Shown here one piece after another: positions 224-42,816 of a stretch of DNA of 42,960 nucleotides (the stretch's first letter is position 1; every line of letters starts with the position of its first letter). The stretch spans positions 1 to 42,960 of the forward strand of contig RBNJ01000082.1 of assembly GCA_003990765.1 (NCBI GenBank). Reading direction: 5' to 3'. This DNA comes from Jimgerdemannia flammicorona. Lineage: Eukaryota. The position numbers and the translations under genes were made by a program. The notes beneath the pieces were generated by a model, which saw only the letters and a program-made list of their open reading frames with translations, did no database searches and had not been told where the DNA came from.

Positions 224-1240
224 TTAATATTTTACATAATCTCCTTTGGTCTTGTATATAGCAGCAATGCGTCTTGGCATACTCTCAATTAGGTCAATGT
301 ATTTTTCGGTCAATATGCCTTCCCATTCATGCTCTATACATTCCCAAAGCTCTTGCATTCCTTTGGGTGGTTCATCATATACATTGAGCAGTTGTTTGAG
401 ATGTCTCCAAAGATGTTCGATTGGATTAAGATTGGGAGACTGTGCTGGCCAATCTAGCAAATGGATGGAATTGTTCTTGAACCAGTTGTACACCATCTTC
501 GATGTATGTTTTGGATTATTATCTTGTTGAAATATCACCTTCTTTTTGTCCATTCTAAAGAATTTAATAGATTCCTTTAATTCATCTTCGAGGATTTCTG
601 TATATAGCTCCGAATTCATATGCCTGTCGATTCTGCATGTATATCCAATGCTATAGTAACTCATACATCCCCAAATCATAATCGATCTGTCACTGAATTT
701 CAACATCAGAGTTATGTGATATTGCTCAAGCTGCACCCCAGGCCTCTTCTATGCCCATTCTCATCTGTCTGACCCCAAACGGTTGACTTTTGTTTCATCC
801 GAGAATATCACCCATTTTCAGTCATCTATGGTCCAGTCTTTGTATTTTTGTATGAATTCATACCATGATTTGATATGACGTGGCAACAATAATGACTTTT
901 TCTACTTCACAAATAACTTCAAACTGGCACCTTTTAACATTCAATGTACTGTGGTTGTGCTCACACTGGCTCGGCCCTCTTCTTGAAGTATTTTTGCGAT
1001 GTTTGCAGTGGTTTCAACCTTGCCACTGGACACCTGGCAGACAATCCATAATCTATCTTGAGTAGATAACTTTAGTGGACAACTGCCTTTTGATATGTTT
1101 GCATTGTTACAATGCTCGTTTCGGATGTGGCTAACCAAAGTAATGCTTATACCGATTGCTTTAGCAATCTTTTTTGCTAACTGCCCAGAATTCAACCTAT
1201 TAATGATAGTGTTGCAAATCTCAATAGATAGCTTCTGCAT
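224..1240 (-). pseudogene. Tc1-family transposase, disrupted by stops and frameshifts
   Basis: N-terminal HTH-like segment (MQKLSIEIC...IAKAIGIS), VIFSDETKVNRLGS (~770-812), IMIWGCM, FQQDNNPKH and WPAQSPNLNPIEHLW. There are 34 residues between the second D and the E. Split over ORFs 941-1240 and 224-736. Confidence 0.93.
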
Positions 1241-1978: not shown

Positions 1979-2565
1979 ATAAGCCACTAAAGTCTATACA
2001 AATTAGAGATCAGATCTTATTATATTAGAATATAGCTGAAGCCTTATGATTCTATATGCAGAACACAAAAGGAATTACCTTTTGGCTATCCACAATGGTA
2101 AATTCAAAGGCTACAACAATAACTCATAGGTTTTCCCAAACTTATATCTGCTTCTTTTCCACCATCCTTGTCATCTTCGGCAGTGGGGATCGACAATGGT
2201 TCGGAGAATGAGCACTGGGCCATGATTTCACCAAATGAGTTGCGAAACAACAAAGTACGCATTCGTGAACTCTTTTGTCGGAGTAGAATGCTGTCGGCGC
2301 ACGTGCCTGGTGTTTCGAGAGCATGTACCAGTAATTAAATAACCACAACAAATTCGAACGCACAAGAGAAGTAAAATAAGAACCAATCGTATTATTCATC
2401 TAACGATACAGCTCAACTCCGTCGCGATCTCCGTGCGGGCAAGTATACAAACGAACAAAGCTGTCCGTGTGGAAATGTTATTAGCGGAAACGCGTGTAGC
2501 TTTTAAAGACGTTTACCAGTATTTTAGTTCACGATGCTATGTGTTACTGGCGCTTCGCCATACTT

Positions 2566-3152
2566 TCACACAACAAAACAGAAGCTAGCACAAGGTTTAT
2601 TTCGAGTATAATATATACATTGGAAAAAAAGAAGAAAACAATACATCGGAATGGTGATCAAAAACATCAACCCCCCCCCCCCTTTACAATCAAGCAAATC
2701 GATTTGGATCACTAAAACGCCAAACAGGACGAGAAAGGTACCGAGTGCGACCATCAAGAAGTTAATTTTCCACCACCAAGCCTCGTTCGGGTTGGCGCTG
2801 TACATGAGGAACAGGCCGAAAAACCAGAGATCCTGTGCATATTAAGATGGGTGGTGATAGGATTTCGACAAGGCGGGTGAGAGCGATCACGGCTCACCCC
2901 TACCGCCGCCTCTTCCCAAGATGTCGGCGACCATTAACAGGTAGAAAAAGCTTGCCATCCCAACTTAAAAAAGAGCTTGGCAACGGGGTACGCCGGCCAG
3001 TGCTCTTCGGCACGTAGGAGTGGCTGGCTCTCGTCGCTGATGTATACGATACGGGTCTGCACAGTGTTCCCGGCGGGCTTGCCACCTCGACTGGGTGCTG
3101 GGAGTGTTGGTGTTCCTGGCGGGGGAAATTTTGCGTCGTTGGTGGTAGCCAT
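2566..3152 (-). pseudogene. Small two-exon membrane protein, copy 1 (frameshifted)
   Basis: Exon 1 reads MATTNDAKFPPP...ESQPLL...KLFFKLGW. The donor is GCAAGC (GTAAGC in copy 2). Exon 2 reads LWFFGLFLMYSANPNEAWWWKINFLMVALG and has a 10-nt deletion at its start relative to copy 2. The 3' end is approximate. Confidence 0.6.
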
Positions 3153-3271
3153 TTGGGTATGTGTCTGGAGATAAGGACCAAATGTCCGGTGGACCCAGGA
3201 GTGATGAGGTGACATACTCTATTTCTGGATGTCGACGTTGCACCAGATGGTGAAAGAGGAATTGGTCCAGT

Positions 3272-4708
3272 TTATTTTTTCGCTTTTGCTCGATTGGGTG
3301 ATTGTTTACTCCCTATCCCCGTTTCATCTTCATTATAAGCCTTCTCGATTACGCCACAAATATGGTTGTCCCCATCCGGCGTGGTGAACTTCTGAGCGAT
3401 GATGTTGCGCACGTACTGAGAGGTTGAATTACGGAAGTGCGGCTTCGGGTTCTCGACGATATCGTTTGTGATGATGTTTGCAACCTCGTCGGCGGTCTGC
3501 ATGACACCAGCCAGGACCTGATAGCCTTACTGTAGGTGGCAGCGTGTTCGTGGTACGGGTCCGTGGGGTCCGTAATCGCGAGATTGCTGCCAAAGATGGG
3601 GTTAGATGAAGGTGATGGTTTAGTGAGAGTGGCAGATGATCGAACGAGAGAATACAAAGAGGAAGGTTGGCGTGGCTTACGTTATCGAAGAACTTGGTAC
3701 TGATGGGCCCGGGCTCGACAACCGAGACCTTAATGTTGAAGTGGGACAGGCTGACGGCCATGGCCCTCCACGGCAACTTGGCGGCGCAATAGGCGTCGTT
3801 GAGGGGCTAACCCCTGTGTAGGTTGGATTGTTCACATAGCACGACGTAAGGCGTTAGCTTGAGAGCTGATTCTCCATGAAAAAAATGAGAGGGAAAATAA
3901 AAAAGAGAGGAAAATATATACAGCAAACCACCAACGCTGCCAATGGTAATGATTTGACCTTCCCTGCGTTCACGAATGGAGGGAACTATGTGTTGGATTG
4001 CAGCGTGGGTTAGTTCTAAAATATATTCGAATTCGAATCGAATATGGAACACGGAAGAAGTGTGGGCGGACGGGACCGAAGAAATTCGTTTCAAAGATCT
4101 CACGGATCTCCTGGAGTGAGGCCTGTTCTAAAGCCTCGGGGAAGCCGAGTCCGGCGTTATTGACTGTGGAAGTAATGGCAGTTCGCCAGGATAAAGTGGA
4201 GGAAATGGACACATGAAGATTGGGTTTGAGAAATTCGCGTCTGATCAATCCGTATCAATGCTCTATATTCGAAAAGAAACTCACTCAACACATCGATCTT
4301 TCCTTCAGCTTCCAAGATCTCCTTGATAGCGGCCTTAATAGATTCCTCCTTCACGCCAAGCTGCCTGATCTCGATTGAAGCCGCAAAAAAAAAAATAAAA
4401 TAAAATAAAAAAATAAAAATACGAGGGTCCCCAATCGGACCCACGGCCGAATGGACCAACGTACGTGCTCAGCGGCGGCCTGCTTCAAATCGTTGTCTTT
4501 GCCGAGGTTGCGCATAGTCGCGTGCACCTTATACTTATCGGCCTGTTTGCCAATGGAGGACGGCGAGGGAAAGACCGACCTAAGGTGGTGTGAATGAGAG
4601 AAAGGTAGGTAATTTTGAATGGAAAGTCGTCAAAGGCGACATTGAACCATGGAGTTTGGCACATACGCCATACGAGTAGCCAGTGATGAGAACGACGCGA
4701 GGAGACAT
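3272..4708 (-). pseudogene. Short-chain dehydrogenase/reductase (17beta-HSD1/retinol dehydrogenase-like), multi-exon, frameshifted
   Basis: ATG at 4708 gives MSPRVVLITGYSYG|VGLSLAVL, a TGxxxGxG motif across a GTATGT..TAG intron. Also KVHATMRNL, GKIDVL|INNAG, FETNFFGP, IGSVGG, catalytic [13 protein letters not shown] and PKPHFR. Frameshifts near 4545 and 3777; LSES is deleted. Confidence 0.88.
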
Positions 4709-4762
4709 GTAAGAGACGATTGTTGTTTGGTGCAACGATTTTTAGTGGAGTGGTCTGAAGGG

Positions 4763-4770
4763 TATTTATA
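4763..4770 (-). promoter_or_regulatory. Putative TATA box of the SDR gene
   Basis: TATAAATA on the minus strand, ~55 bp upstream of the ATG. Confidence 0.5.
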
Positions 4771-5747
4771 AGTGAAGAGGGGAGACACGCGTCGGTTCCA
4801 CTGATTCCGTTCTGGGCCGACTTGCTTACGTATATACCATTTTTCTCACACTTGTTTGTTGATACCTCAATTCTAGGATAAAAATGCGTGAACATAATTA
4901 CGGTGGTGACGGAAGAGGTCCCGACGTAAGTTGGAGTGACATTTGAAGGCCGAAAATGTATATTCGACACGGTTTGTATCTGCTTGAATGGAATACGTGA
5001 AGCTTTTGATATTTACAATGCATAATCCCAAGATCCGCGGGTGGTTCCTTGGCCAAATCGGACAAACAACCGTGGCTCACGACACGCAAGCTCCCTGGTC
5101 GGAGGGACATTTACCTGCTTGGCTTGGCAAACTTATTATACGGATCTGGCGCTGTAGATAATGAACTGATTCTCGAGCGGCGTATGTTCTTTCTTACTTG
5201 CCCGATGGCGGGCTGCGATGAAACGATCCCATCATCTTCGTTTTGACCATCTGTTGAATGGAGGGATCGACAAGGTGGGAGTACGAGCACACTGGGCCAT
5301 TATTTCACCAAATGAGTTGGAAACCACAAAGTATATACGCATTCACAAAGCCGCTCTTGAGTAGAATGCTGTCAGCGCACGTGCCTAATTACATAACCAT
5401 AACAAAATCGAACGCACAAGAGAAGTAAAATAAGCGCGAACCGCATACCAATCGTGTTATTCATCTAACGGTACAGCTCAACTTCGTTGCTATCTCCGTG
5501 TGGACAAGTATACAAACGAACAAAGCTGTCCGTGTGGAAATGTTATTAGCAGAAACGCGTGTAGCTTTTAAAGACGTTTACCAGTATTTTAGTTCACGAC
5601 GCTGCGTGTTATTGGCGCTTCGCCATACTTTCGCACCAAAAAACAGAAGCTGGCCCAAGGTTTATTTCGAGTATAATATATACATTGGAAAAAAAAGAAG
5701 AAAACAATACATTGGAATGGTGATCAAAAGCATCAACCCCTCCCCCT

Positions 5748-6294
5748 TCACAACCAAGCAAATTGATTTGGATCACTAAACAGGACGAGCGAGGTAACGA
5801 GTGCGACCATCAAGAAATTAATTTTCCCCCACCAAGCCTCGTTCGGGTTGGCGCTGCACATGAAGAACAGGCCGAAAAACCAGAGAGCCGGGAAAATCCT
5901 GTGCATATTGAGATGGTTGGTGATAGGGACAAAGAGGATTTCGACAAGGCGTCAGCAAGAGGATGAGAGCGAAAAAAATAAATCGCGTGTATTGATCACG
6001 GCTCGCCCCTACCGCCGCCTCTTCCCAACAAGAAGTCGGCGACCATTAACAGGCAGAAAAAGCTTACCATCCCAACATGAAAAAGAACTTGGCAACGGGG
6101 AGTGCCGGCCAGTGCTCTTCGGCACGTAGGAGAGGCCGGCTCTCGTCTCTGATGTATACGATATGGGTCTGCACAGTGTTCCCGGCGGGAGTGGGGGAGG
6201 TCGAAGGTGATGGACCTGCCGCCTCGACTGGGTGCTGGGGGTGCTGGGGTTCCTGGTAGGGAGGGGGAAGTTTTGCGTCGTTGGTGGTATCCAT
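5748..6294 (-). CDS. Small two-exon membrane protein, copy 2 (~125 aa; exons 6294-6068 and 5898-5748); C-terminus possibly frameshifted
   Basis: The GTAAGC donor at 6067 and CACAG acceptor at 5899 join in frame to give KFFFMLGW-IFPALWFFGLFFMCSANPNEAWWGKINFLMVALVTSLVLF. Pro-rich N-terminus. An 8-nt deletion relative to copy 1 lies near the end. Confidence 0.6.
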
Positions 6295-6429
6295 TTGGGT
6301 ATGTGTCTGGAGATAAGTAGCTCAACCAAATTACCAAATGTCCACTATTTCTGGGTGTCGACGTTGCACCAGATGGTGAATTTGGAATGCTGCACCTCGT
6401 GAAAGAGGAATTGGTCCAGTTTATTTTAT

Positions 6430-7040
6430 TTTATTTTATTTGATTGGGTATCAATTTCCTAATTGTTTACTCCCTGTCCCTCACGGCCATTATAAGCCCT
6501 CTCGATTACACCACGAATATGGTTGTCCCCATCCGGCGTGGTGAACTTCTAAGGTTGGGTTACGGAAGTGCGGCTTCGGGTTCTCGACGATATCGTTTGT
6601 GATGGTGTTTGCGACCTCGTCGGTGGTCTGCATGACACCGGCCAAGGCAAAGCGGGACCTGATGGCCTTACTGAAGGTGGCAGCGTGCTCGTGGTACGGG
6701 TCCGTGGGGTGAGATTGCCGCCAAAGACGGAGGGTTAGATGAAGGTGATGATTTAGTGAGAGCGAACGAGAATACAGAGAGGAAGGTTGGTGTGGCTTAC
6801 GTTATCGAAGAACTTGGTGCTGATGGGCCCGGGCTCGACAACCGAGACCTTAATGTTGAAATGGGACAGGCTGCTGGTGGCCATGGACTCGCTCAGGCCC
6901 TCCACGGCAAACTTGGCGGCGCAATAGGCGCCGTTGAAGGGCTGGCTCCTGTGTAAGTTGGATTATTCACATAATATGATGTAAGGCATTTGCTTGAGAG
7001 CTGATTCTCTATGACCAAAATGAGGGAAAATAAAAAAGCA
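6430..7040 (-). pseudogene. SDR gene copy 2, 3' half only
   Basis: [22 protein letters not shown]...[13 protein letters not shown] is intact. The 5' exons are replaced by TE sequence at ~7041, and the last exon carries a deletion. Confidence 0.82.
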
Positions 7041-7340
7041 TTCATCTTCAAAGGACTAGTCAAATACTAGAAAGTAGATGTACTTTCAACAACAGTGCTG
7101 TAAGAAACTTATCAATCAGAAACTCATTGAGAAATGTAAGATCCTCATCAAACTAGTGAAAAAAGGTACCAGAGTAATTACTATCAATAGAATCTCTTAT
7201 CTAATTATTGAAATTATAGTCAAGCTTCTCTCTGAGATTTAAAAGTATTAGAAATGTTTAGATTTTAAAATTATACCAATTGAAGATCATAACCTTACAC
7301 TTGGAAAATGCTAGCTTTTATATTATATTCTCAGATTAAT
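7041..7340 (+). mobile_element. Heavily decayed aspartic-protease fragment of a family-B-like retrotransposon
   Basis: FIFKGLVKY*KVDVL...INQKLIEKCKIL...LDFKII..DHNLTLGK aligns with the B protease LIFKGLVKGQELDVL...INKNLIDKLKIL...LDFKVA..DHDLILGK. Confidence 0.75.
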
Positions 7341-7426
7341 TAATATAAGAATAAAGTCAATCTTCTATAATAAGGAGAAAATATCATAATTAAATCAGAT
7401 ATAGTTCAGAAGAAAGAGTTATTTAT

Positions 7427-9090
7427 TATGATGACACCTTTGAAACCAGTGACATCAGAATTCAGAAGACTGTCTTGACTTTACAAGCCATCAGTTGTAA
7501 ACCATAACTCAACTATAACTCATCCTGATTATAAGATAATCTATATCTAAACTTATAATAACTCATGATGACTCTAGCAGTATACTACTACTAGTTAGAT
7601 GACCCTATTCTCTGGACTAAAGGAGAAGACCTTCAAGATATAAAAGAAGCATTAAGAGAAGAAGTATAAAGTATTAACTATAAATAGAAGACTTACTACA
7701 AAACAAAATATCTATTATCTACCAAACAGCCAGATCAAGGAGCCATCCAGGTCTATCAGTTCAAGAATAGATATTCACTGATATCAAGAGAGCAATGAGG
7801 CTGTATATAAGAAAGACCCCTAGTCTGAACCTTTATATAAGAGACTCATACTACTATATCTTCAACTACTAAGAAATAGAGACAAGAATCACCACTGCTA
7901 CTGAGTATTTTTGAATATATGTAGCAAGAATATAAGCTGGAATATCACTTCTACTAAGAGTTTACATAAGAAATTATAGACACTATAAATATAGATGGAT
8001 ATGAATAGAAACTAGTAAAAAGAGTCCACCAGATCTTCAGACATATATCCTGAACTATTCCCAACATAGAATATATCAAAGTCTCTGATATCTAAGAATT
8101 GATAAGCTATCATATAGATCATTCTTGAGAAAATAGTTGCAGAAGAGGCCCAATCTACTATTATAGTTAAGAGTAATAAAGCTCAAGACCTTTGGAACTC
8201 CATCTTAGAGGACAATTTAGACCAATTTATTTATAATCTAATTGTACTATTTTAAGACTCTTTCTTGAGAGTCTACTATCTCTAGAATTCCACAGATATT
8301 CCCTACTTTGTAAATGACCTCAGTATTGACTGGAGGCCTTAAGAGTAGAATGATCTTATACTCTTTGATAATATCACTCCTTTAGACAATTTGGAGGATA
8401 ATAACAACCTACTTATTTTATTGGAAGATAATATCAACAACTTCCTTTCTATACTCCTAGAGCCCACTACTGACTTCAGTATAACTATAGAGGATATAGA
8501 AAATGATTTGGTCAGACTTTCTGAAGAAAATGAGAAGGAGGATGAGAATAATTTAATCCTAGTTATATTGAATTTTAAGATATATAAAGATGGCTCCATT
8601 AGTCAAATTGAGTAAGTTAGTTAGTTATATAAACAGTAACTATATATTAACTAGTTAAATTCATTACAAATATAAAATTAGTCTTATCTAGTTAGTTAGT
8701 TATCTAAATTCCAAAGATGTGCTAAATAGTATCTTCTAGTAATTATGAGTTACAGTCAATTACCTAGCCTTATTTTTAATCTAAAAGTTGTATAAATATT
8801 CTCTGATCTGTAGTAAATAAATCTAAGTCAATTGATTTGTAATACTAACTTAAGTTTGAGTATAAAGAACTTTGAGAAAAAACTCCAAGAGCTGAAGTAA
8901 TACTCTTACTACTACTGCTTCAGAAAATCATTACAAAACTCAAGATATAAGATCAAGACCATGCTTTCAAGACATGAGTCAATTGATATCCAATATAAGT
9001 CAATTAGTTCTGAAAGACAAGAGAAGTCAAGTGTAAGAACTTTAGAAAAAACTCCAAAAGCTGAAGAAATTTACTCTTACTGCTGCTACT
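7427..9090 (+). mobile_element. Old ORF-bearing LTR of family D (related to the family A LTR); right end uncertain
   Basis: Starts TATGATGACACCTTTGAAACCAG, matching TGTGATGACACC at 31304. Translates to IFTDIKRAMR..KTPSLNL..ETRITTATE..KRVHQIFRH..IPNIEYIKVSD. TATAAATA at 8791. Confidence 0.8.
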
Positions 9091-9104
9091 AGTACTTCAA
9101 ATGA

Positions 9105-9385
9105 GTTAGTTTGAACCAGTTCAAATTGTGACTATTCTTAATTCAAACTGATTTGAATTAATCATATAATCAATTTGAACTGATCAGAATCAGTTTATAA
9201 TTAATTTGAATCAGTTCAAATTGTGACTGCTCTAATTCAAACCTCTAAACTGATAATTCAAATCAATGAATTTAAATTATCAAATTTGAATTACTGAATT
9301 CAAATCATCAGATTTGAATTGTCAGATTTGAATTATTAGATTTGAATCTTAGCTAGATTTGAATTATCTGATTTGAATTCTATAA
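9105..9385. repeat. AT-rich TTGAATT/TTCAAA repeat array, including ~13-bp units AGATTTGAATTAT
   Basis: Repeated gatttgaatt at ~9280-9380, and duplicated cagttcaaattgtgact at ~9117 and ~9212. Confidence 0.7.
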
Positions 9386-9500
9386 ATAAACAAAACTTAT
9401 TATATAATTTACTTACATATATAAACAGAGGAACATAAGAGAAAATATTTACAAACATGTTCACAAACACTAATGTGAATATATATATATATATATATAC

Positions 9501-11059
9501 TGTAACAGTGAATCCAGAATGATGATATCAGTACAGGAGACAGCCTTTCCATATAAGCTACTAGATTGGAGCACAAGAAGATCATATGGCATATGAGATG
9601 AGCAATGATGACCAACTGTAAGTCATTGTGACCACAGTACAAGCATCCTGAAGAATATAAAAGAAGGATCAAGGAACTGCAGTAGCAGCAACTAACAAGA
9701 ATCACCAATCCCAAAATAGCTCAAAGACTTACCACAAATGAAATGCCTGCTGCCTGCCAAACCTCAAGGTCAAGGAATTACCAAAATATCTCAGTTGAGG
9801 AAAGGATGTTCCAAGACATCAGAAGAATGGGGACCTACTCAAAAAGGACTCCTAGTGTCCACCTGGATACTGTAGACCCTTATCACTTCATTCTCTACTG
9901 CCATGAAATGGAAACAAGGATCACCATTGCTACTGAATGCCTCCAAATGTAGCAGGAGTATGAAATAGGAAATCTCCTCTACTGGAAGTTCCCACAGGCC
10001 AGCACCCAAGAGCTACAAGATACTACTTCTATGGATATATGTAAAATAAGAATAGTTAAGAAGATCCATCAGATCTTCAGGCATGCACCATGGTCAATCC
10101 CCAACTTGGAGTATGTCAGAGTCTCAGACTTCAGAGACCTATCATCCTGCTATATCAATGTACTAGAAGCCAGGGTGGCTACAGAAGCTCAGTCCACTAT
10201 CACTCTCAACAGTAAAGAAGTAGAAGACTTCTGGCATCCTATCCTTCAGAACAACCTAGACCAATTCCTACAAGGATTGATCTCAGTATTCCAAGGCCCA
10301 AGCATCCAGGTTAGACCTCTCCAAGATCCCACATTTGCTCCCTATTTTGTAAAAGAGAACCTCATAGACTGGAGAGCTCCAGATCTCCTTGTTCCTTGTT
10401 CCTGATTTCTCTGCCACAGCTGAATGTGATGACATCATCGGTAATGACATCATCTTGTGCAATATATGCAAAATGCACAACCTACATGATGAGTTCGCAG
10501 ATCTCATCTCCTTCAGTGATGATGATGATGAAGCCCCCATAATCCTGAACTTTCTGCTCTAAGTTCTTTGTTACACTGGATAATGCCAGCACCAATATTC
10601 TCATGTAATACTGGATAATACCAGCACCAGTATTCTGAGGTGATGCGAAATTGTTCTAGCACTAGCATTTTGATGTGATACTAAATAATGCCAGCATCCT
10701 GAACCTGTACAACCATCAGTGCCAGCCCTGAAACTTAGTAGTTTTAGTTATTGGAATTTATATTTAGCTTTATATCTTAGCAACTATTGAATTATATTTT
10801 GTATAAATACCTCTCTTATTTCCTCTGAAATAAAGTCAGTCAATTCAGTGCATTCAGTCAACTCAGTGCAATACACACACTTCCTTGCAAGCAATCTAAG
10901 AGATAACAAGACAGTTTAAAGATAAGAATTTTGAGGACTATAAGACCTTGGGAAGATACTCCAATAAGAACTTGCTTATAACAAACTTGAGTTAGTCTAA
11001 GAGATACACCTTGAAGAGAATCTGGCATATTTGAAGGACTCAGCAACTACTATGTGACA
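9501..11059 (+). repeat. A1 5' LTR (~1.56 kb)
   Basis: TGTAACA...TGTGACA ends. Homologous to 32613-34105 and 39787-41308. TATAAATA at 10802, AATAAA at ~10829, and PBS-like TGGTGCCC at 11063. Confidence 0.92.
9593..10562 (+). pseudogene. LTR(U3)-encoded protein of unknown function, ~320 codons
   Basis: ORFs 9743-9952 and 10031-10405 share a frame and are joined across TAG, which is TGG in both A2 LTRs. The upstream stops are CGA/CAG-type. The end reads DEAPIILNFLL*, reached via a late frameshift in this copy. Confidence 0.72.
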
Positions 11060-11116
11060 ACTTGGTGCCCATTGGCTGATGATTTAAGACGAATCCCTCA
11101 CTTTCAAGCTAAAAAA

Positions 11117-13254
11117 TGAACAATCCTCACAATAACTACCCTGACTACAAGAGTCACCTCTGCAAGAATTCAAGATAAGATGGAAATATGCCCCCCCATA
11201 TTCTATGGATATACTACTGAAGAGTCAATTCTAACCTTCATTGAAGACTTTGAACAATTCACCACCATACGAGCCCTTGGTGTGGATGCTCAATTGGCCC
11301 TTCTACTAGTCAGCCTTAGAGGACCTGCTAGAGACAAGTTCAATGCAGCCACCATTACTGATGCTGGTGCAGCCAAACTTACCAACATGAAGGTCTTCCT
11401 CAGAACAACATATTATACCAAAGAGATCAAGCAAGCTCTCAAGGATCAACTCAATACTATCTGCCAGGAACTTAGTGAAGATCCCAACTCATTCTATACC
11501 CAAATTTACTACTAGATTGTCTTGGCTGGCTATGATGACTGCCTCAAGGAACAAATAGCAGATTCAACCTTCCTCAAAGGAGTTCACCCTGAAATTGCCC
11601 TAGCAATCCAGTCTACCCCAGCTATACTGACCCTTGATCAGAAAGTGGTCTTTGCACAGAGATATTGGACTGCCAGACACTCTGCCAAACACTCAATGGA
11701 GAAAATAACTGGCATCAAGATGGAGCCATCAAAGCCAACTAGTATCTTACCTGCCACAGTCATAAACAGACAATCAACCCCACCTACTCCCAAGATAGCC
11801 AAAGCTGACCCAGTGAAGGAACTCACCAAGCAGTTCACCGAGATGACTACACACCTTAGTGATGTTGTTAGAGAAGTCTGAAGTGCCAACAGGAGACCAG
11901 TACAGAGATTTGCAGCTGCTATAGAAGAATGTAATATTACATACTTCAGATGTAGAAAGAAGGCCACTATGCAAAGAGTTACATGACTGAAACAAGATGC
12001 AAAGCCCAACCAAGCAATGCTAGCAGAACCAGAGAACAAACTAATGCAGTAGTCATCAAGGAGATTGGTGATACTGATGATGAAGAATATTACAAGGAGC
12101 TCAAATTCAACTCTGCTACTGAAGGTACCAGAACCCAGTCCAAGCCTTATGACAAGAAGAGCAACAGCAAGCCAGTTAGAAGACCAAAGAAGACCCCAGC
12201 TATCACCATTCAAAGCAAGACTCAATCTGAAGAGATTGATCAAGATATAGAGTTAGACAAAGCTGCCCACCAAATCATAGAAGGAACTACTCCAGTCTCA
12301 GGAGAAAGCAAAAGCAAGAAGGAACAGAAGCTGTGCAAGACCAAGATCTACTAGTATAACATCTACAAGGACCTCAAGGAACAGAAGGTCAATGCCACTT
12401 TTAGACAGCTAGCTGAAGTCTCTGCCTTCAGACAGCAGTTGAGAGTAGGACTTGTAACTACTGCCAAGAATCAAGAGTACAAGATTGTAGAAGCTCACAA
12501 TGCACAAGAAGAATCCGAGAACTCAGGTGAAGAATCTGAAGACTAGTGCAAGACATCAGCCTATACCCCCTGCCAGATCGAAGACTGTATCTTTGATGCC
12601 ATCATTGATACTGGTGCTGGAGGATACCTCATGAGCAAGAAGGCAATTGACTGCCTAGGTTGGGACATTGAAGAGTCTACCAAGATGGTCTATGTTATAG
12701 CAGATGGTACACAAGCTACCCCTCTTGGCAAAATCTGAGAAGTCCCCATCAAGATAGAAGGAGTCACCATCTCAGTAGATGTGATTGTTACAAGTGCCAC
12801 CAACTATGACATCCTCATTGGCAACCAATGGCTTCACAAGGCCAAGGCCATCATTGACCTCAATGTCCAGAAGATGCAGATCAACTACAGAGGAAGAAAG
12901 GTATGAGTCTCTATCAATGTCCACAAAGGAGTCCTACCAGACATGGAGGAAGGAGATGAAGATACAGAGGTCTTCATGCACTTGGTGAACAAGAACAAGA
13001 GCAAGACACCCAAGCTCACAGATGAGCAGTGGTATAATAAGATCATTGATGGCTATGCCCCTCAAGAAAGATGCCCCCATGGTACTAGAATATACTGCTC
13101 CGAACACCTGAATGACTGCTGGTCCTGTATCAGTGAAGTCAGGAAAATCCACCAACAGAAACATAAGCAAGAAGCCACCAAAGCAAAAAGGAAAGCCAAA
13201 GAAGATGACCAGCCCCCAGAGCTTCAAGCTGACAGTGACGATGAGGAGGAATAA
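11117..13254 (+). pseudogene. A1 gag + aspartic protease
   Basis: PPIFYG...FIEDFE...SLRGPAR (Gag), decayed zinc knuckle at ~11940, AIIDTGAGG at ~12600, and YDILIGNQWL. Confidence 0.85.
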
Positions 13255-15200: not shown

Positions 15201-15486
15201 GGAGCTATACTATGGATTAATCAGCTATCTTAGGCAGTGGAAGATGTCCAACCACCTCAAACTCTGGACAATCACCATTATCAACCAAACTTGGAAACAG
15301 TTTGAATTAGACAACACTACACTCAGAAAAGGAGGAAAGCTAGTAATACCCGAACACAAGAAGTATCAAGTAATGAAGGAAGTATATGAGCAAGGACACT
15401 TAGGAGGAATCAACACATATAACAAGGTAAGAAGAACTATGTGGTGGTCCAAGATGGAAGAAGACCTGCACCAATTTGTCAAAGAG
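15193..15486 (+). pseudogene. A1 integrase N-terminal part (HHCC zinc finger, cut by B)
   Basis: MNKELYYGLISYL...GHLGGINTY...WWSKMEEDLHQFVKE, continuing as CDKCQK at 21503. Confidence 0.88.
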
Positions 15487-16214
15487 TGTAATGGTTCTAG
15501 TTTCTAAATAAGGAAGCAACTAATTCTGATATTCCTAAGTAACTCAAAGAGATACTAAGGATTCAAGTATTCTCAAAAGATTTCTGAGAGAAAATATTCT
15601 GAGACTTTATTCATGAGAACAAAGAGGATATTTATATAAGATCTGAAAGAAGGATCCAGAAGGATCTGAGAAATCAAAGGAAAATGCCAAGAGGAAAGTT
15701 CTCGGCAAAGATGACAAATGATGACAAATAAAGTTCTACAAGTTTCCAGGACATTCAGTGACTAACTAAATAAGTACTAGTTAATGCTCAGTGCTAAGAA
15801 AGGATTTCTAAGCATTTGGAAAGTACCAGAAGGTTGTAGAATATTGAAGAAAGACAAAGAAAAGGAATAAACTATACTAAAATGTTACATCTCCCCCTCC
15901 TTAAGAATCAATGTCCTCATTGAATTCTCAAAGTTACATACAATAAACAATAAGACTAAAAGAAACTTCAAATTAAATATACTGACTCATTGGCAAGGAT
16001 TGGCTATCCTTATACGTATAAGGTGAGGGCCAAAGTATCATCTTGATCAGATGAGAACTGGTTCGAACCTCATTAGTTGCAGGATTTATAGGGTTCTCCT
16101 GTATGTATCTCTTACTTCTGATACTGTATCCCTTAGAGAGCCCTGATATATAATGTGTCTGATCAGTACAGTAGGTCATCTACTATCCAAGGGGAGAACC
16201 TCATGGGTAGTCAA

Positions 16215-19040
16215 TGAGTTCCTTTTTGCTTGAACTCTTGGATGAGATCTTGGGAGTTTTTGAGATTGGTGGTAGGTTCCCAGGTGGTGTCATATTCAGA
16301 GTAACCCATCCACTTGACTAGGTATTCTGTGCGATGGTATCAGACTCATTTGTCTAAGATTTTCTCAACTTCATACTTGATGTGGTCTTCAACTATGACT
16401 GGTGCTGATGGTGTTGGAATTTGGCCAGGATATGGGGGTGACTGATTCCAGACCTTGAGTTGTGACATATGGAATACTGGGTATATATGCATAGTTGTTG
16501 GTAAGTTGAGACAGTAAGACCAAGTAGAGACTTGCTCAGTGATCTCGAAGGATCCAAGGTACTTGGGCTGGAATTTGGCTGACTGGCAGTTGACTTGAGA
16601 TTGAGCCTTGATATTGTTGGCTTTGAGTAGAACCATATTGCCAATGTTGTATATGACATCTTGCCGCTTCTTATCTATATACTTAGCTTGATATTTCTGA
16701 GCCTTTTGCAGGTTCATAGTGGCAATCTTGAGAAGGGAATCTATTTTGTTGATAAGGTTCTGGGCTGTGGGAACTTGTGTATAACTGGATTGCTGGAATT
16801 GGACTAGGCTTACAGGGGTCTCAGAGTTTTGACCATGAAGTAGCTGAAATGGGGAAAGACTAGTTGATGATTGGTTGGTATTGTTGTAGGCGAACTTGGT
16901 ATAGGTCAGATAGTGGTCCCAATCATCTTGCTCATAAGACACATAGTTTCTGAGTATTTGTTCAAGTATTCTGTTCATTCACTCTATCTGTCCATCAGTT
17001 TGAGGATGGAAGGTAGTGGATATAGCAATTTGGGTTCCAAGGGTCTTGAAGAATGCTTACCAGAAGTGACTTGTGAACTTGGGGTCATGGTCACTGATAA
17101 TTACTCAGAGAAGTCCATAATGGCAGAAGACAGTCTTGAAGAAGATTCTTGCAATTTCTGGAGCAGTGGCATTGGTTGTGGTTGGCTCAGCAATTGTAAT
17201 CTTGGTGAGATGGTCCACAAATACAACAATAGCATCATAGCCTGTTTTGGTTCATGGGAGTTGCACAATGAAGTCCATTGTAACTTGTTCGAACTTCTTG
17301 GTTGGAATTGACAAGGGTTGTAGAAGACTAGCAGGTACTTGGTTGCTTGACTTGTTTCTTTGGCAAAGATTGCAGCTTTGAACATACTCCTTGATTTCCT
17401 TGAGCATGTTTGGCCAGTAGTAGTCTCGTTGGATATTCTTGATGGTCTTCTCAGTTCCAAGGTGACTAGCTAGTGGGGAGTCATGATGTTCATGAAGAAT
17501 CTTGTACCATAGTTCAGAGTTAGCAAAAATATATACTTTGTCTTAATAGTACATGAGGTTGTTCTTGATGATGTACTTTTCCTTGAATTCCTTGGTGTTC
17601 CTTTGTAGAACCAGAGAGTCTTGTTTGTACACCTTCTTGATCTGGTTGAGGAATTCAGGTGCCACAGTGACTTGTAAAATCACAGCAAGGTCAGGTCTCC
17701 TTGAAAGTGCATCTGGTACAACTAAAGTTTTGCTGGACTTATAGATGATGTTTGGAGTAAAGGTCTGAAGTAGTTGACTCCACTTGGCTTGTTGGCAAGA
17801 AAGGGTTGGTTGAGCATTGATGTACTGAAGGGATCTGTGATTAGTGATCACATTGAACTCAACTCCTTCTAGATAGTATCGCCAGGTCTTGAGGGCATGC
17901 ATAATTGCCAGGAGTTCCTTTTCGTGAGTAGCCAGCTTTTGTTCTGCTGGGGATAATTTTCTTGACTCAAAGGCAATAGGTTGGTGTCCTTGACCATTAT
18001 CTTGAGAAATGACTGTACTAATGGCAAAGTTAGATGATCTGTAGTGACTGTGAACTTCAAGTTTAGGTCTATGTTTCTAAGGACAGGTACATGGGTCAGA
18101 CAGTTCTTGAGTTCTTGAAAGGCTTGTTGACAGAAAACATCCCAGATGTAGGGGACATAGAGGTTAGAGTTGGGTTCCTTTTGCAGGAGGTTTGTCAAAG
18201 ATTCTGCAATGTCAGAGAAGTTCTTGACAAATCGATGGTAGTATCTAGCCAGACCAAGGAAGGACCTGAGTTCAGTGAGGTTTGCTGGTACAGGCTACTG
18301 TTCAATGGCTTGTATTTTCCTTGGGTCTACTTGAATTCCTTTGGCTGATACAATGTGTCCAAGATATTCGACTTGATCCTTGAAAAATTCATATTTCTTG
18401 AGCTTTGTGTAGAGCTTGTTCTCGCAGAGGATCTTGAGGACTTGTTCAATGTGCTTGAGATGTTCTTCTTCAGTGCTACTGAAGATCAGGATGTCATCAA
18501 TATATACAAGTATGAAGATATAGAGCTGGTCCTTGAAGACAGTTTGTATGAGATCTTGAAAAGTTGCTGGTATATTGGTGAGACCAAAGGCCATGACTAG
18601 AAATTCGTAGAGTCCAAAGGGTGTTATGAAGGTAGTCTTGGGTATGTCTTCTGGCTTGATTTGGATTTGGTGATACCCAGAGGTGAGATCAATCTTGGTG
18701 AAGTACTTTGCATTCTTGAGAGCATCAAAGATTTGATCTATGAGTAGTAGCAGATAGTGGTTCTTGACTGTGATCTTGTTGAGTACTCGGTAGTCTATGT
18801 ACATTCACAGAGTATCATCCTTTTTCTTGACAAATAGGACTGGGGAGCCAAAGGATGACTTGCTTGGTTGGATGGCTCCTCACTCAATGAGTTTATTGAG
18901 TTCCTTCTTGACTGCTTCAATTTTGAGTGGAGACATACGGTACATTTTCTCCTTAGGTATAGCTGCATCAGGTACCAACTTGATCTCGTGGTCATGGTCT
19001 CTTGAAGGTGGTAGACCTGGTAGTTTGTCCAAGAAGACAT
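16215..19040 (-). pseudogene. B RT-RNase H-integrase-chromodomain
   Basis: IDLTSGYHQI, YIDD, DALSRRPD and KYLGSF (GPF/Y-like). Chromodomain YEVEKILDK*V*YHRTEYLVKWMGYSEYDTTWEP. Confidence 0.92.
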
Positions 19041-19259
19041 CCTTGTACTTATTCAGCAGTAACTTGACACTTTCACTAATTGATAGCTTCTTGTCTTCTT
19101 TCTTTGATCAGATCAGTACCACAAAGGCACAGGTAGCTTTCTTGAGAGCCTTCTTGAACTGAATTGCTGAGAGGGTAGCAATTGGGGTTCTTGTCTGAGT
19201 CTTGTCTGGCTTGATTGTAATATTGGCTCCATCCTGGATCAAGGTAACTTCATTCTTAG

Positions 19260-21027
19260 TCTAATTAATCTGAGGGTTGTGTCATGTAAGCTAGGGTTTG
19301 CCTAGGATCAGGTCATGGTCTCCTAGTAGTGCTACCTTGAAATCTAAATGTTCCCAGTACTTCTGAATCTTGAGGGGAAGTTTAGCAGCAATTGAGTCAA
19401 TTGGTAAGATGGTGCCATCTGCAGTGACAACTCCACTATTCTTGCTGGCTGGTTTGGTGAGAATTTTGAGCTTGTCAATGAGGTTCTTGTTGATGAAGTT
19501 CCCAACAGCTCCACTGTCTATGAGAACATCTAGTTCTTGTCCCTTGACTAGACCTTTGAAAATGAGCATTGAATTGGCTTGGTTCTTAGCTATGCTTGCA
19601 ACTTTGTCAGTGCTGCCAAAGCCTTTCTGATCTCACTTGGTTGAAGACAGCTTGGTGACTTCTTTGATGACTGGTAGGATAGCTTGCTCCAGAATGAGCT
19701 GTGCAATTCTGTCTCCTTCATTGATGATATATGGTTGGTTCTTGTGATTGACTAGCAGGACTTGCATTTCACCTTGGAAGTCAGAGTCAATGACTCCAGC
19801 ACCAATATCTAATGAGTGCTTGAAACTAAGGCCAGATCTTGATGCAATTCTTGCATAATGTTCCTTGGGAATTTCGACTGAAAGACCAGTTGGAATGAGC
19901 CTTCTTTCATGTGCCAGAATAGTGACTTGTTGTACTGCTTAAAGGTCTAAACCAATGGCTCCTTCTGACTGTGCTTGAGGGATCTGGGCCTTGGGGTTGA
20001 CTTGTATGAAATTGAGTACAACTTTTTGTTCAACTGGTTGACCTTGAGTGTCTTTGGACAGGACCAGAATCCTCTTTGGTTCAGCAGTTTTCTTGGGACA
20101 TTTAGTTGCAATGTGACCAGGCTGGCAGCAAAAGAAGCAGACTCCAGCCTTCTTGGGGCACTCCTTTTCCTCAGGTGTAAGTTTGCCTTTCTTGTTCTTA
20201 TTGATAGTATCTAGGTCCATGGGGGCAGGTCCAATAGTTCTGACTTTGGGTTCCTCTCTTCTGTGATTGTTACTGTGACCATAGGTGATGATATCAAATC
20301 TATCAGTAATTTTCATTACTGTATCTAGGTCCTTGGGTTCTTCTAGTTCAACATGAACTTGGGTTTGACCTTTCAGGCCTCAGATGTACTTGTCAACCTT
20401 CTCATCTTCAGTGATATGTGGTAATTCTAGCAGAATTGACAGGAATTGTGCATTGTATGCTTGTACAGACTTCAGTTGTTTGACATTTGCCAGATGGTCT
20501 CGCATGGCTTTGGTGCTGTTGACTGGTTTGAATTGGTCTTAAATAGCATCAGAGAATTTGCCCCAGGTCTTGATTTGGCCAGAGAATCTGGTATTCTGGA
20601 TATGATTTTGCCACCAGATTGCAGCATTCCCTTAGAGGAGTATGGCAATAAATTGGACTAGTGTTGCTTCTTTCAAATTGGTCAGTTCTCCATATTGCTC
20701 CAATTAGAAAAGCTAGGCATTGGTAGACAGTCTTCCTCTTTGACCATCAAAGGTATTGGGCTTCTGAGGCTTGATAGTGACTGCTGTCAGATATATTGAT
20801 ATTGATGGGGGTGTAGAGGTATGAGTGGGGGCCTTGCCTTCCTTTCTTTCTATGCATTCTTGAAGTTGTGCAATCTGAGCTAATGTGGTCTGCAAAAGAC
20901 TCTCAATGGCCCCATTCGACTGAGTAGGATTTTGCTGTTCCTCTTCTTCTTGCTGATTGTACTGATTGTATGAGGCATTACCTGGACCATAGGTACTATA
21001 TGAAGGGTTCCACCTGTTGTCCTCCAT
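19260..21027 (-). pseudogene. B gag-zinc knuckle-dUTPase-protease (knuckle to protease in one frame)
   Basis: KPQKPNTFDG, PAPMDLD and CFFCCQPGHIATKC, then GAIGLDL..RIASRSGL..GAGVIDSDFQGE..GDRIAQL..KGFGSTD, then LIDSGA. Confidence 0.9.
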
Positions 21028-21502
21028 AGTGTTGTGACTGATATCTTAAGAGGTGTCTTGATAAGGCTAGGTGTAACCACCCACTGCTACCAAGTGTAAC
21101 GGTTCTAGTTTCTAAATAAGGAAGTGACTAATTCTGATAGTCCTAAGTAACTTGAAGAGATACTAAGGATTCAAGTATTCTTGAAAAATTTCTGAGAGAA
21201 AATATTCTGAGACTTTATTCATGAGAACAAAGGGGATATTTATACAAGATCTGAAAGAAGGATCCAGAAGGATCTGAGAAATCAAAGGAAAATGCCAAGA
21301 GGAAAGTTCTTGGCAAAGATGACAAATGATGACAAATAAAGTTCTACAAGTTTCCAGGATATTCAGTGACTAACTAAATAAGTACTAGTTAATGCTCAGT
21401 ACCAAAAAAGGATTTCTAAGCATTCAGAAAGTATCAGAAGGTCATAGAATATTGAAGAAAGACAAAGAAAAGGAATAAACTATGCTAAAATGTTACAAAG
21501 GA

Positions 21503-21975
21503 TGTGATAAGTGCCAAAAACAGAAATAAGATCAGCAAGACCAGGCACCCAGGTCATCAAGAATTGAGCCTATCCCCTTCCACTACATTGCAATGGATAT
21601 CATTAGATCACTACCAGTAATACTATCAGAAAACCACTATATTATAGTTATTGTAGACCTCTTCACCAAATGGATAGAGGCAGGAGCATTACAAGAAGCC
21701 AATGCCCTCTCTATAGCCAACTTCCTATATCGAGAAATCATCTGCCACTACAAGACATCAAAGCAAATCACAACAGACCATGGAATGGAATTTGTCAATG
21801 GATTCCATAAGATAATGTATCAGAAATACAAGATCCAGCACATCAAGACCACTGCATACCACCCTCAAGGAAATGGATAGACAGAGAGAACCAACAAGAC
21901 CCTCAAGAACATCCTAGTGAAGATCTCAGAGACATATGAGAATTGGGATAACTATCTCCTAACTGCCCTCTCTGT
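21503..21975 (+). pseudogene. A1 integrase core, truncated
   Basis: CDKCQK, IAMDIIRSLP, VDLFTKWIEA, TDHGMEF and YHPQGNG. Confidence 0.9.
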
Positions 21976-31303: not shown

Positions 31304-32330
31304 TGTGATGACACCTTTGAAACCAGTGACATCAGTATTCAGAAGACTGTCTTGACTTTACAAGTCACTAGTTGCAAACTGTGACTTATTCTGATCATAA
31401 GATGATCTGTATCTGAACTCATAATGACTTATGATAACTCTAGTAGTATACTATTACTAGTTAGGTGACCCTATCCTCTGGACTAAAAGAGAAGACCTTC
31501 AAGATATAAAAGAAGTATCAAGAGAAAAAGTACAAAGTATTAACTATAAATAGAAGACTTACTATAAAATAAAATACCTGTTATCTGTCAAATAGCTAGA
31601 TCAAGAAGCCACCTAGGTCCATTGGTTTAAGAACAGATGTTCACTAATATCAAGAGAGCAATAAGACTACATATAAGAAAGATCTCTAGTTTGAACCTCT
31701 ATATAAGAGACCTCTATCACTACACTCTCAACTGTTAAGAAATAGAGATAAAAATCACTACTACTACTAAGTATCTTTAGATATAATAAGAATATGAGCT
31801 AGGATATTACCTCTACCAAGAGTTCACATAAGCCAGCTCTCAAGAAATTGTAAATACTACAGATATAGATAGACATGAACAAAAACTGACCAAAAGAGTC
31901 CACCAGATCTTTAGATATATACTCTAGACCATTCCTAATCTAGAATATATCAAAGTCTCTAATATTCAAGAATTAACAGACTGCCATATAGACTATCTTG
32001 AGGAAATGATTATAGAAGAAACCCAATATACTATCATAGTCAAGAGTAATGAGGCTCAAGACCTTTGGAACTCTATTCTAAAAGATAATCCAGACCAATT
32101 TATTTATAGTCTGATTGCACTATTTCAAGGCCCTCTCTTGAGAGTCTGCTATCTCTAGAATTCTATAGATATTCCCTACTTTATAGATAACCTCACCATT
32201 GACTGGAGATCTCAAGAGTAGAATGATCTTATACTCTTTGATGATATCAAAGATACTCTATATTATAAGATTGGCTTCTTACTCCCTACTGAAGAGGAGT
32301 AACTAAAATTTACTCAACTCTAGTAGTAAC
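31304..32330 (+). mobile_element. Family D LTR remnant (probably a 3' LTR)
   Basis: TGTGATGACACC start, preceded by purine-rich AAAAGGCAGA. Collinear with ~7427-8370. Confidence 0.8.
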
Positions 32331-41300: not shown

Positions 41301-41414
41301 CTGTTACATTATATTTCAAAAAATAGAGTTTGAATTGAATCTCAAATCAAATTAGATCTTTGATTTGATTTAAATTGAATTAAATTAGATTTTTGATTCA
41401 ATTTATTGAGAGTA
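32365..41414. mobile_element. Fold-back/MITE-like element (~350 bp net: 32365-32612 + 41309-41414), split by A2
   Basis: Arm 32473-32535 is the reverse complement of 32567-32612 + 41313-41330. Outer ends TACTCT..AAATTGAATCAA and TTGATTCAATTT..AGAGTA. Confidence 0.72.
32613..41308 (-). mobile_element. Full-length Ty3/Gypsy element A2 (8.7 kb)
   Basis: LTRs at 39787-41308 and 32613-34105, 4-bp TSD TTAT, PPT AGGAGGAAGA at 34115-34106, and PBS-like TGGTACCC at 39783. Gag, PR, dUTPase, RT (YVDD), RH and IN (35655-34419) are all disrupted. Confidence 0.95.
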
Positions 41415-42561
41415 TTAGATAATAGTATTCTACTAATTCTCCAAAATATGATATACTGCAATAATCTCTATTATATTATATATACATAAGACTGCTAAAG
41501 AGAGAATAGGTCAGAATTTCAACCTTTTGCTCAATCTTATAATCTTTAAAATCAGAAAATAGAATCTATACTAATATAATCTCTCTACTATCTCTGAAGT
41601 TAGTATCATTATTGCTAAGAACTCTTCTGATATCAATACTACTCATAATATCATTATCCAATTCTATAGCAGTTAGCTCATTGCTTTACTTAAGATATCT
41701 TTCTCTCTGCTTTCCCCTTCTCTATCTCTATGAGAAGCCTAAATAATATCCTAAGATTTCTTTTTCTAGAGCAAACTGACAACTTCAGAAAGGTAATGGT
41801 GATGTGGAGAGAGAGAATGATTAGGATAGGAGAGCTCAGACTATAAGGTTGGATGATGAAAATAACAAAGATACTAAGAGTACTGAAGATAGAGCCAATA
41901 GGGCAAGAGGTATATTTGTCTCAGATTTTATATATCTGTTTCAAATCTTACTTAGTTTTTGATTTATTAAACTCAGTTTTTTTACTCTCTTTTACTCTCC
42001 CTTTAAGATTATATCTTCTAACTCTAATTCTATACCTATCATCTACAAATATATAATAATGTCTTTTCAATTATCTATTACTCAGATTGTCTCTTTTAAG
42101 AATAGTTAGTTGATATATTTATCCAAATTAAAAATAACTATTTTCAGTTCTATTAGATAAATTAGGATAAACTTTAAGCCAAGCTCTAGATAGACTATAA
42201 GATGCAGTTTTAAGTAGTATCAATCTTATTGATATTAGTCAATAGACTATCCTCTCTTTGACATTCATTAGCAGTCTACAACATAAAGTCTAATAGTATT
42301 AAAACATTATGACCATCATAGACAGCACTTCTAACCCTGATATATTTATTATCTTTACTACTAATCCTCAATAGTTTGAAGTCACTAAAGCTATTCTGCT
42401 CAGTCAGATTACTTAGAAATGCCCCCTGATATCATCTCCTGCATCTTTAAGCTCAAACTTAATATATTTTATAAGAAACTATTTAATAAGTATATTCTGG
42501 ATAGAGTTAGAGCCTAAATATTATTATAGAGTTTTAGAAGTATGGCTTACTTTATACCTAC

Positions 42562-42816
42562 TGTGATAATATCTTTGAAACCAGTAATATCAGAATTCAG
42601 AAGACTGTCTTGACTTTACAAGCTACTAGTTATAAATTATGACTTAACTATGACCCATTTTGATTATAAGATAATCTGTATCTAAACTTATAATGACTCA
42701 TAATGACTCTAGTAGTATACTACTATTAGTCAGGTGACCCTACTCTCTGGACTAAAGGAGAAGACATTCAAGATATAAAAGAAATATTAAGAGAAGAAAT
42801 ATAAAGTATTAACTAT
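42562..42816 (+). mobile_element. Third family D LTR 5' fragment
   Basis: TGTGATAATATCTTTGAAACCAG... is collinear with 7427 and 31304 up to aagtattaactat. Confidence 0.85.

Follow-up and report, generated by a model that had tools for sequence, protein, structure and literature searches.

Contig RBNJ01000082.1 of Jimgerdemannia flammicorona (assembly GCA_003990765.1), which over its full 42,960 nucleotides forms the window analysed here, is a nest of long terminal repeat (LTR) retrotransposons, as judged by self-BLAST and a scan for open reading frames (ORFs) and domains. We conclude with high confidence that a real, selected protein gene is contained inside the LTR of one of these families, family A; decayed remnants of it are found in the LTRs of a second, family D. 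The three family-A LTRs (A1, A2 and A3; Table 1) are ~1,560 bp long and 87.0–89.3% identical in self-BLAST and a three-way alignment. The gene, referred to here as the LTR gene, lies wholly inside the repeat, in both LTRs of a minus-strand element and in the 5' LTR of a plus-strand element. In A1 it extends from the ATG at 9743 to the stop codon at 10560–10562, and about 279 codons followed by TAA are common to the A copies. With more reserve, we favour the reading that each LTR carries a self-promoted accessory gene, placed in the U3 region of dUTPase-bearing Ty3/gypsy-type elements.

The reading frame, its conservation and its relatives

A first-pass annotation, made from the letters of the window without database searches, had proposed the same sense-strand frame in all three A LTRs (which it began at 9501, 32613 and 39787), and the alignment confirms that the frame is homologous in the three. 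The A1 copy has in-frame gaps of 3, 24 and 9 bp, and its 16-bp frameshifting insertion consists of a 7-bp unit, TCCTTGT, repeated 2.6 times. Premature stops in the A copies number 10, at 9 positions over the 279 codons. Each of the nine is matched in one or both of the other copies by a sense codon (CAA, CAG or TGG) that differs by a single transition; the annotation had already remarked on sense codons opposite several of the stops. It had also put the end of the ORF ~240 bp ahead of a TATA box, correctly, as the stop codon and TGTATAAATA at 10800 show. Its start at 9593 and its length of ~320 codons have to be revised: the stretch 9593–9742 carries three stops (codons 3, 13 and 31) in all A copies, and intact homologues, described below, open at a position equivalent to the ATG at 9743, giving the true size of ~279 codons. 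The claim that the family-D LTRs keep the frame stands, for a decayed form of it, in D2, which is collinear with A over 186 codons, gap-free and at ~64% nucleotide identity although interrupted by seven stops, and in D1, which needs two frame changes; D3 has no ORF. All five A and D copies that are long enough contain the segment.

Differences between the A copies and D2 were counted by the Nei–Gojobori method, with bootstrap intervals, after dropping stop-bearing codons (178 codons used for A1, 158 for A2 and 127 for A3). The ratio of the nonsynonymous to the synonymous proportion (pN/pS) in the proposed frame was 0.48 (0.38–0.62) for A1, 0.39 (0.33–0.53) for A2 and 0.37 (0.34–0.53) for A3, values that blend selection on active lineages with neutral decay of the copies, so that their exact size means little. 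In the two shifted frames it was 0.82–1.12, well above the in-frame range of 0.37–0.48, and the in-frame deficit is still visible after the neutral decay that followed insertion. Codon position 2 has the fewest transversions in 6 of 6 A–D pairs (18–20 versus 35–41), pairs that are not independent of one another. Differences among the A copies themselves are spread evenly over the codon positions, as expected of post-insertion decay. The contrast of in-frame with out-of-frame pN/pS, taken with the intact divergent homologues, thus strongly supports the original suggestion of a selected protein gene as opposed to a chance frame.

Searches with the window copy of the protein retained 6 of 23 candidates as matches, and searches with a profile 13 of 6,234. 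A library of representatives at 50% identity (1.84 billion representatives) gave six matches at E ≤ 1e-3, one of which, P0011, was dropped as a low-complexity repeat; P0007, with an aberrant C-terminus, was excluded from two of the family alignments. The 13 homologues are 26–80% identical to P0003. All lie on short metagenome contigs (jgi or ena), and none of the 13 bears an NCBI or UniRef name. Intact ORFs are present in P0002/P0017 (247 residues), P0003 (271), P0009 (342), P0012 (325) and P0013 (247), and these proteins start with MPAA, MPAL or MPP. P0013 is an intact D-type protein with a tail end like that of D1, and A-type intact ORFs also exist. The frame is therefore open in at least five divergent lineages, down to 26–31% protein identity. 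No longer, fused form of the protein was found among 8,000 scored candidates, which is weak evidence.

A single related DNA locus, L001 (1,535 bp), was found in metagenome contigs, and none in viral contigs or in prokaryote genome contigs. Its protein is 42% identical. The L001 ORF has 291 stop-free codons compared with 6–22 stops in the other five frames, its GC content at codon positions 1, 2 and 3 is 0.56, 0.37 and 0.57, an asymmetry typical of coding sequence, and its length was reached in 0 of 1000 shuffles. The stop codon is followed by AAGGAGGGAGGA and then TTGTAATAAG, resembling a polypurine tract and the start of an LTR. A 28-nt motif (GTCAGGCGGAAC...CAGAACA) occurs on both sides of the ORF, at 170–197 and 1481–1508, the two being 86% identical. 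We considered L001 as a tandem or circular LTR and rejected the idea, having found this single 28-nt internal repeat.

The first-pass annotation recognised no domain in the protein, and the searches agree with it. Pfam gave no family for the window copy, and 15 of 15 family members had no match better than E 0.026, a chance level, and none of the matches was retroviral. A sequence profile search of the PDB gave no match at E ≤ 10, Foldseek against the PDB none at E ≤ 1e-3 (best E 0.91), and a wide fold search with VIA-align none of 48,161 chains at Z ≥ 5 (best Z 4.1). The best scores in the ESM Atlas, 0.86 and 0.88, were below a meaningful level, and when two gag pieces from its own element were compared with it by profile the probability was ≤ 0.1. 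Two AlphaFold2 models, of low confidence (mean predicted local distance difference test scores of 50.7 and 53.6), predict a helical core at about residues 47–184, a small hairpin at 200–212 and a disordered tail. The protein opens with a basic stretch (10 K/R among residues 1–45) and closes with an acidic tail of 57–60 residues, of which 18 are D/E; this tail carries conserved hydrophobic patches (DLISF and LNFLL) and ends in LNFLL. This layout of charge fits a nuclear regulator, and other roles fit it equally. Prediction of a homodimer of the core returned 'no answer' with a score of 0.00, which is evidence neither way. Motifs in the tails resembling an Atg8-interaction motif (4 of 5 tails) and a clathrin box (2 of 5 tails) were set aside as too degenerate to use.

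Non-coding modules and a proposed expression unit

The sequence TATAAAAGAA, here TATA1, is present in A1, A2, A3, D1, D2 and L001, 65–87 nt ahead of the start codon. It is followed by a leader, AGACTTACYACAAA, common to A, D and L001 (361–374 in the last); the leader gave 8 matches against 1.16 expected, five of them at this position, in A1, A2, A3, D1 and D2. Both are kept in A, D and L001 though the A and L001 proteins have diverged as far as given above, and their conservation just before the ATG points to a separate transcription unit in each LTR. After the stop codon come 35-bp direct repeats containing ACACTGRATAAT, whose copy number varies among A1, A2 and A3, and L001 has a 14-nt exact match, TACACTGAATAATA, downstream of its ORF (score reached in 0 of 200 shuffles). 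These three modules (TATAAAAGAA, AGACTTACYACAAA and ACACTGRATAAT) are better conserved than the protein. The second TATA box, TATA2, forms with AAATAAA a module that is matched in A1, A3 and D1 (8789–8821), A2 having GGTATAAATA instead, and that sits 180–240 bp past the stop in A and D (240 bp in A1). A search of 7300–11300 against Rfam gave no matches.

From these modules we propose the following anatomy. Read 5' to 3', the LTR would comprise TGTAAC, ~155 bp, TATA1, a leader of ~55–60 nt with AGACTTACYACAAA, the ORF of ~270–280 codons, the 35-bp repeats and TATA2 with AAATAAA, the LTR ending ~225 bp further on. TATA2, with the poly(A) signal at the presumed U3/R border, would drive the genomic gag-pol RNA, which would place the gene in U3; this placement is inferred from TATA2 at 10800 and the 35-bp repeats. 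TATA1 would drive a short monocistronic mRNA of ~1.1–1.2 kb ending at the shared poly(A) signal, and any LTR could make such an mRNA. An own promoter combined with the U3 position is, in our estimate, a little better than an even bet. Since the gene lies in sense orientation in both LTRs, it would also be present in any solo LTR.

As to function, we suggest tentatively that the protein regulates transcription or silencing of the LTR. In the nucleus the product would activate the LTR of its own element or counter its silencing, with the repeated ACACTGRATAAT as a possible point of action. A fuller version of this proposal, which we regard as doubtful but worth stating, is that each LTR forms an independent mobile gene, complete with promoter, ORF and poly(A) signal, and encodes a sequence-specific ACACTGRATAAT binder that activates or shields the element. 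If so, solo LTRs left by recombination would keep expressing the protein, and its dose would follow LTR copy number; binding to ACACTGRATAAT would take place between the gene's stop codon and the genomic promoter, and shielding would be from the host's methylation and C-to-T mutation directed at transposable elements. VANC proteins are anti-silencing proteins of plant DNA transposons, and the LTR gene would be a retrotransposon counterpart of these or of foamy-virus Tas.

In A, the 35-bp repeat nearest the stop opens with TGTTACACTGG, similar to TGTAACAGTG at the LTR terminus. Because of this similarity and of the purine run and TTGTAATAAG in L001, we speculate that the gene originally lay in the internal region, immediately ahead of the 3' LTR, and was absorbed into the repeat as the plus-strand priming site shifted upstream.

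Objections and competing explanations

Several observations weigh against the reading of a self-promoted regulatory gene in U3. All five gene copies in the window are broken, by transition-type stops and small indels, and the blended nature of the pN/pS values has been noted above. At codon 211 (33234 in A2, 40439 in A3) a TGG-to-TAG stop is shared by both LTRs of the minus-strand element and is absent from A1; this element may have transposed with its gene already truncated and the acidic tail gone, in which case it would seem not to have required the gene in cis. In the L001 lineage the gene could be internal and not in an LTR, and L001 is the sole relative to provide DNA context beyond the window. 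Nothing in the structure models, which are weak, supports DNA binding. No transcript, start site or protein has been seen, and none of the listed sequencing runs with this sequence is recorded as RNA. The 20 runs that carry it are soil metagenomes and two coded organisms, every share being ≤ 0.28. In run X11, whose identity as RNA is a guess, contig depth is 35–2691 in 11 of the 12 LTR bins and ≤ 2.7 in 17 of 18 internal bins, the other being at 140 (window 32400–41500); in DNA-like runs the LTR and internal depths are similar (208–917 versus 392–654 in X1, 2.7–58 versus 9.7–32 in X5). The LTR excess in X11 could reflect LTR-only transcripts. We do not count it as evidence, because X11 may be DNA, its contig depth is flat and its contigs leave the LTR ends into unrelated sequence.

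A further objection is that TATA1 may be the sole promoter, a competing layout to which we give a minor but appreciable chance. The R region would then be ~1.1 kb and the gene would fall in R/U5, as first cistron either of the genomic RNA or of LTR-only transcripts that are polyadenylated prematurely; TGTATAAATA...AAATAAA would serve for polyadenylation alone. It fits this layout that TATA1 is kept over a greater distance (A, D and L001) than TATA2 (A and D), with the reservation that L001 ends 284 nt past its ORF, and that fungal poly(A) signals have a similar make-up, with a UA-rich element ahead of AAUAAA. Against it, a poly(A) signal in the 5' LTR more than 1 kb from the cap would be expected to end most genomic transcripts, translation of gag would suffer from a ~1.35-kb leader that contains a 279-codon ORF, and the 35-bp repeats immediately upstream of TATA2 look like U3 enhancer repeats. 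The first-pass annotation proposed expression from the 3' LTR copy; on a model of this kind the gene would have no promoter of its own and would be translated from a spliced subgenomic RNA reading into the 3' LTR, in the manner of retroviral sag and nef. The gene is indeed sense-oriented at the 3' end of the genomic RNA, and an AG dinucleotide lies just ahead of the leader in A, D and L001, with CTAAC 24 nt upstream in A1. This CTAAC is not kept in A2 or A3, however, a conserved and properly spaced TATA box would be left unexplained, and no splice joint into the site is among the joints listed, which come from contigs only and carry little weight; we therefore think such an RNA rather unlikely.

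Leaving expression aside, the protein might instead be a dose-dependent brake, its level reporting the number of LTRs, solo LTRs included, and limiting transposition. Ty1 p22 provides such copy-number control and derives from gag as a fragment. A self-promoted gene in the LTR would make dose scale with LTR number, and the apparent transposition of the minus-strand element with a truncated copy would suit a brake. The LTR gene product, though, shows no similarity to the two gag pieces compared, and the present results do not separate activation from inhibition; we would put the brake among the less probable functions. Capture of a fragment of a host gene, or nested insertion of foreign DNA, with no role for the element, has in its favour the lack of relatives of known function and the low AlphaFold2 confidence. 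We consider such an origin very improbable, since the segment is present in every A and D LTR long enough, is open in the divergent lineages and was under purifying selection between A and D. The origin of all 13 homologues from short metagenome contigs also speaks against it, and the lack of a longer fused form among the candidates scored adds a weak argument. Conservation of cis-acting DNA with an incidental open frame is least credible of all. Short non-coding LTR motifs are strongly conserved, as such an explanation would have it, but it does not account for the frame-specific synonymous excess, the gap-free alignment of D2 with A at the identity given above, the intact ORFs at 26–31% protein identity or the length of the L001 ORF.

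The elements, related systems and significance

The A elements are of Ty3/gypsy type: they have an LTR pair, TG...CA termini (TGTAAC...TGACA), a primer-binding-site-like sequence, a purine tract and the domain order reverse transcriptase–RNase H–integrase. Pfam identifies dUTPase, RVT_1, RT_RNaseH and rve in their pol region. The minus-strand copy is complete, A2 and A3 (89.3% identical) bracketing one gag-pol element with a possible 4-bp target-site duplication, ATAA, at both ends in AT-rich flanks. In the plus-strand copy the internal region starts at 11061, is split at ~15485–21480 by minus-strand element B and picks up again at 21489–21973. CTTGGTRCCCATTG directly follows both 5' LTRs of the family, and AGGAGGAAGA directly precedes the 3' LTR. 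Homology among D1, D2 and D3 starts at an identical base (7429, 31306 and 42564), as expected of an element terminus.

Table 1 LTR copies, gene copies and associated modules in the window
Feature	Position	Strand	Remarks
Family-A LTR, A1	9501–11060	+	5' LTR of plus-strand element; TGTAAC...TGACA(A); self-BLAST and three-way alignment
Family-A LTR, A2	32612–34105	−	3' LTR of minus-strand element; purine tract AGGAGGAAGA just before
Family-A LTR, A3	39786–41308	−	5' LTR of minus-strand element
Family-D LTR, D1	7429–8821	+	AT-rich, 29% GC, CpG observed/expected 0.00
Family-D LTR, D2	31306–32254	+	C-terminal part of gene lost or rearranged
Family-D LTR, D3	42564–42816	+	First 253 bp only; ends ahead of leader
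LTR gene, A1	9743–10562	+	One premature TAG at 9950; 16-bp frameshifting insertion near 10395
LTR gene, A2	33025–33863	−	4 premature stops; 1-bp deletion near 33277
LTR gene, A3	40230–41067	−	5 premature stops; 2-bp deletion near 40562
LTR gene remnant, D1	~7708 to 8615	+	Spread over three frames; two frame changes needed
LTR gene remnant, D2	starts 31574	+	Single frame; 7 stops in 186 codons
TATA1, ATATAAAAGAAG	9655–9666	+	87 nt before ATG in A1
Conserved leader, AGACTTACCACAAA	9725–9738	+	Just before ATG
35-bp direct repeats	10569–10708	+	Start TGT(T/A/G)A(C/T)ACT; contain ACACTGRATAAT
TGTATAAATA-N18-AAATAAA (putative TATA2 and poly(A) signal)	10800–10834	+	3 matches versus 0 expected
Primer-binding-site-like CTTGGTGCCCATTG	11061–11074	+	After 5' LTR A1; identical at 39785–39772 (−) after A3

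Decay of the elements follows a clear pattern. Comparison of A2 with A3, the LTR pair of the minus-strand element, counts 157 transitions and only 2 transversions, and the ratio of observed to expected CpG is 0.04–0.09 in the elements and 0.00 in the 29%-GC D copies compared with ~1.0 in the non-element stretch 2000–7000. The transition excess and the CpG depletion indicate that the copies were degraded by a C-to-T process directed at transposable elements, and the pattern is the signature of such deamination or of a process like repeat-induced point mutation. The window copies of the LTR gene are thus dead relics of this decay. Together with the dUTPase-bearing Ty3/gypsy-type elements, which fungi are described as having (PMC2864245), and the soil metagenomes among the runs that carry the sequence, the decay points to a soil fungus as the probable host.

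Elsewhere in the window, elements B (15485–21480, minus strand) and C (22491 to ~31000, minus strand) are further Ty3/gypsy-type elements, both with dUTPase, so that three dUTPase-bearing lineages (A, B and C) occur within 43 kb. The LTRs of element B are short (repeat at 15485–15784 and 21093–21392) and without the LTR gene. Inverted repeats of 243 bp at 3–245 and 1353–1595, 96% identical, surround a remnant of a DDE_3 transposase (227–748, minus strand, E 8.8e-13), an arrangement suggestive of a DNA transposon of Tc1/mariner type whose terminal inverted repeats are long. Direct repeats at 2382–3077 and 5447–6189 are 89–93% identical and ~3.07–3.11 kb apart, in a stretch of 48% GC with a normal CpG observed/expected ratio of ~1.0; none of 9 ORFs tested in that stretch matches Pfam. 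These repeats may represent the two LTRs of a short, non-autonomous element spared the C-to-T decay.

Outside these elements, protein genes embedded in LTRs are known chiefly from a small number of retroviruses. Lentiviral nef and foamy-virus tas/bet, in vertebrate retroviruses, are 3'-terminal accessory genes that overlap U3 in part, and foamy-virus tas has an internal promoter and transactivates the LTR. Unlike the LTR gene, these overlap U3 only partially, and we found no sequence or fold link to them. The gene-in-LTR arrangement seen here is real and uncommon, and its nearest known case is sag of mouse mammary tumour virus (MMTV). In the available text of PMC11998498 the product of sag is described as an 'LTR-encoded ERV protein' (ERV, endogenous retrovirus) under purifying selection, and MMTV is stated to carry a dUTPase. 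Like the LTR gene, sag is a complete protein gene within the LTR and hence in both LTRs, and dUTPase is common to MMTV and the window elements. MMTV, by contrast, is a betaretrovirus of vertebrates, and its Sag belongs to the type II membrane proteins, whereas the LTR gene product is predicted to be soluble and helical with one basic and one acidic end. Homology to Sag or another retroviral accessory protein was not detected by Pfam at E ≤ 1 (15 members) or by PDB profile.

Within LTR retrotransposons, the accessible part of PMC7264820 describes additional ORFs (aORFs), env-like ones as well as the antisense ORFs of Grande, RIRE2 and Retand, that occupy the internal part of the element, most of them downstream of pol and ahead of the 3' LTR, and some of which have their own promoter. 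These are likewise family-wide extra genes of unknown function beside gag-pol; they are internal, whereas the gene here is inside both LTRs in family A, and the phrases 'in the LTR', 'within the LTR' and 'inside the LTR' have no occurrence in that part of the paper. Fungal chromovirus-type Ty3/gypsy elements (Postia, Phanerochaete and Tuber) have a dUTPase at variable places in pol, as far as the text available from PMC2864245 goes, and the drawings of some include an 'add. ORF' with no known function, on whose position that text is silent. They share dUTPase with window elements A, B and C. CERV of Cer1 in C. elegans is a nuclear accessory protein of a Ty3/gypsy element that acts on the element's RNA and, in the available portion of PMC10309623, is not reported as LTR-embedded. 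Our literature search, with subscription journals and supplements outside its scope, found no LTR retrotransposon with a gene inside its LTR, only the MMTV 'LTR ORF' work.

Retrotransposon LTRs are treated as non-coding and are repeat-masked before gene calling, so that a selected gene inside them would be missed systematically. The occurrence of all 13 homologues on unannotated metagenome contigs is consistent with such genes being masked out of annotation. The LTR gene defines a new orphan protein family, and the conserved cis-motifs that adjoin it make binding and reporter tests straightforward. If the gene is self-promoted, LTR copy number and solo LTRs would gain a meaning at the level of protein, and these elements would offer a tractable case of a retroelement acquiring a regulatory gene in its repeat, the step that divides 'complex' from simple retroviruses.

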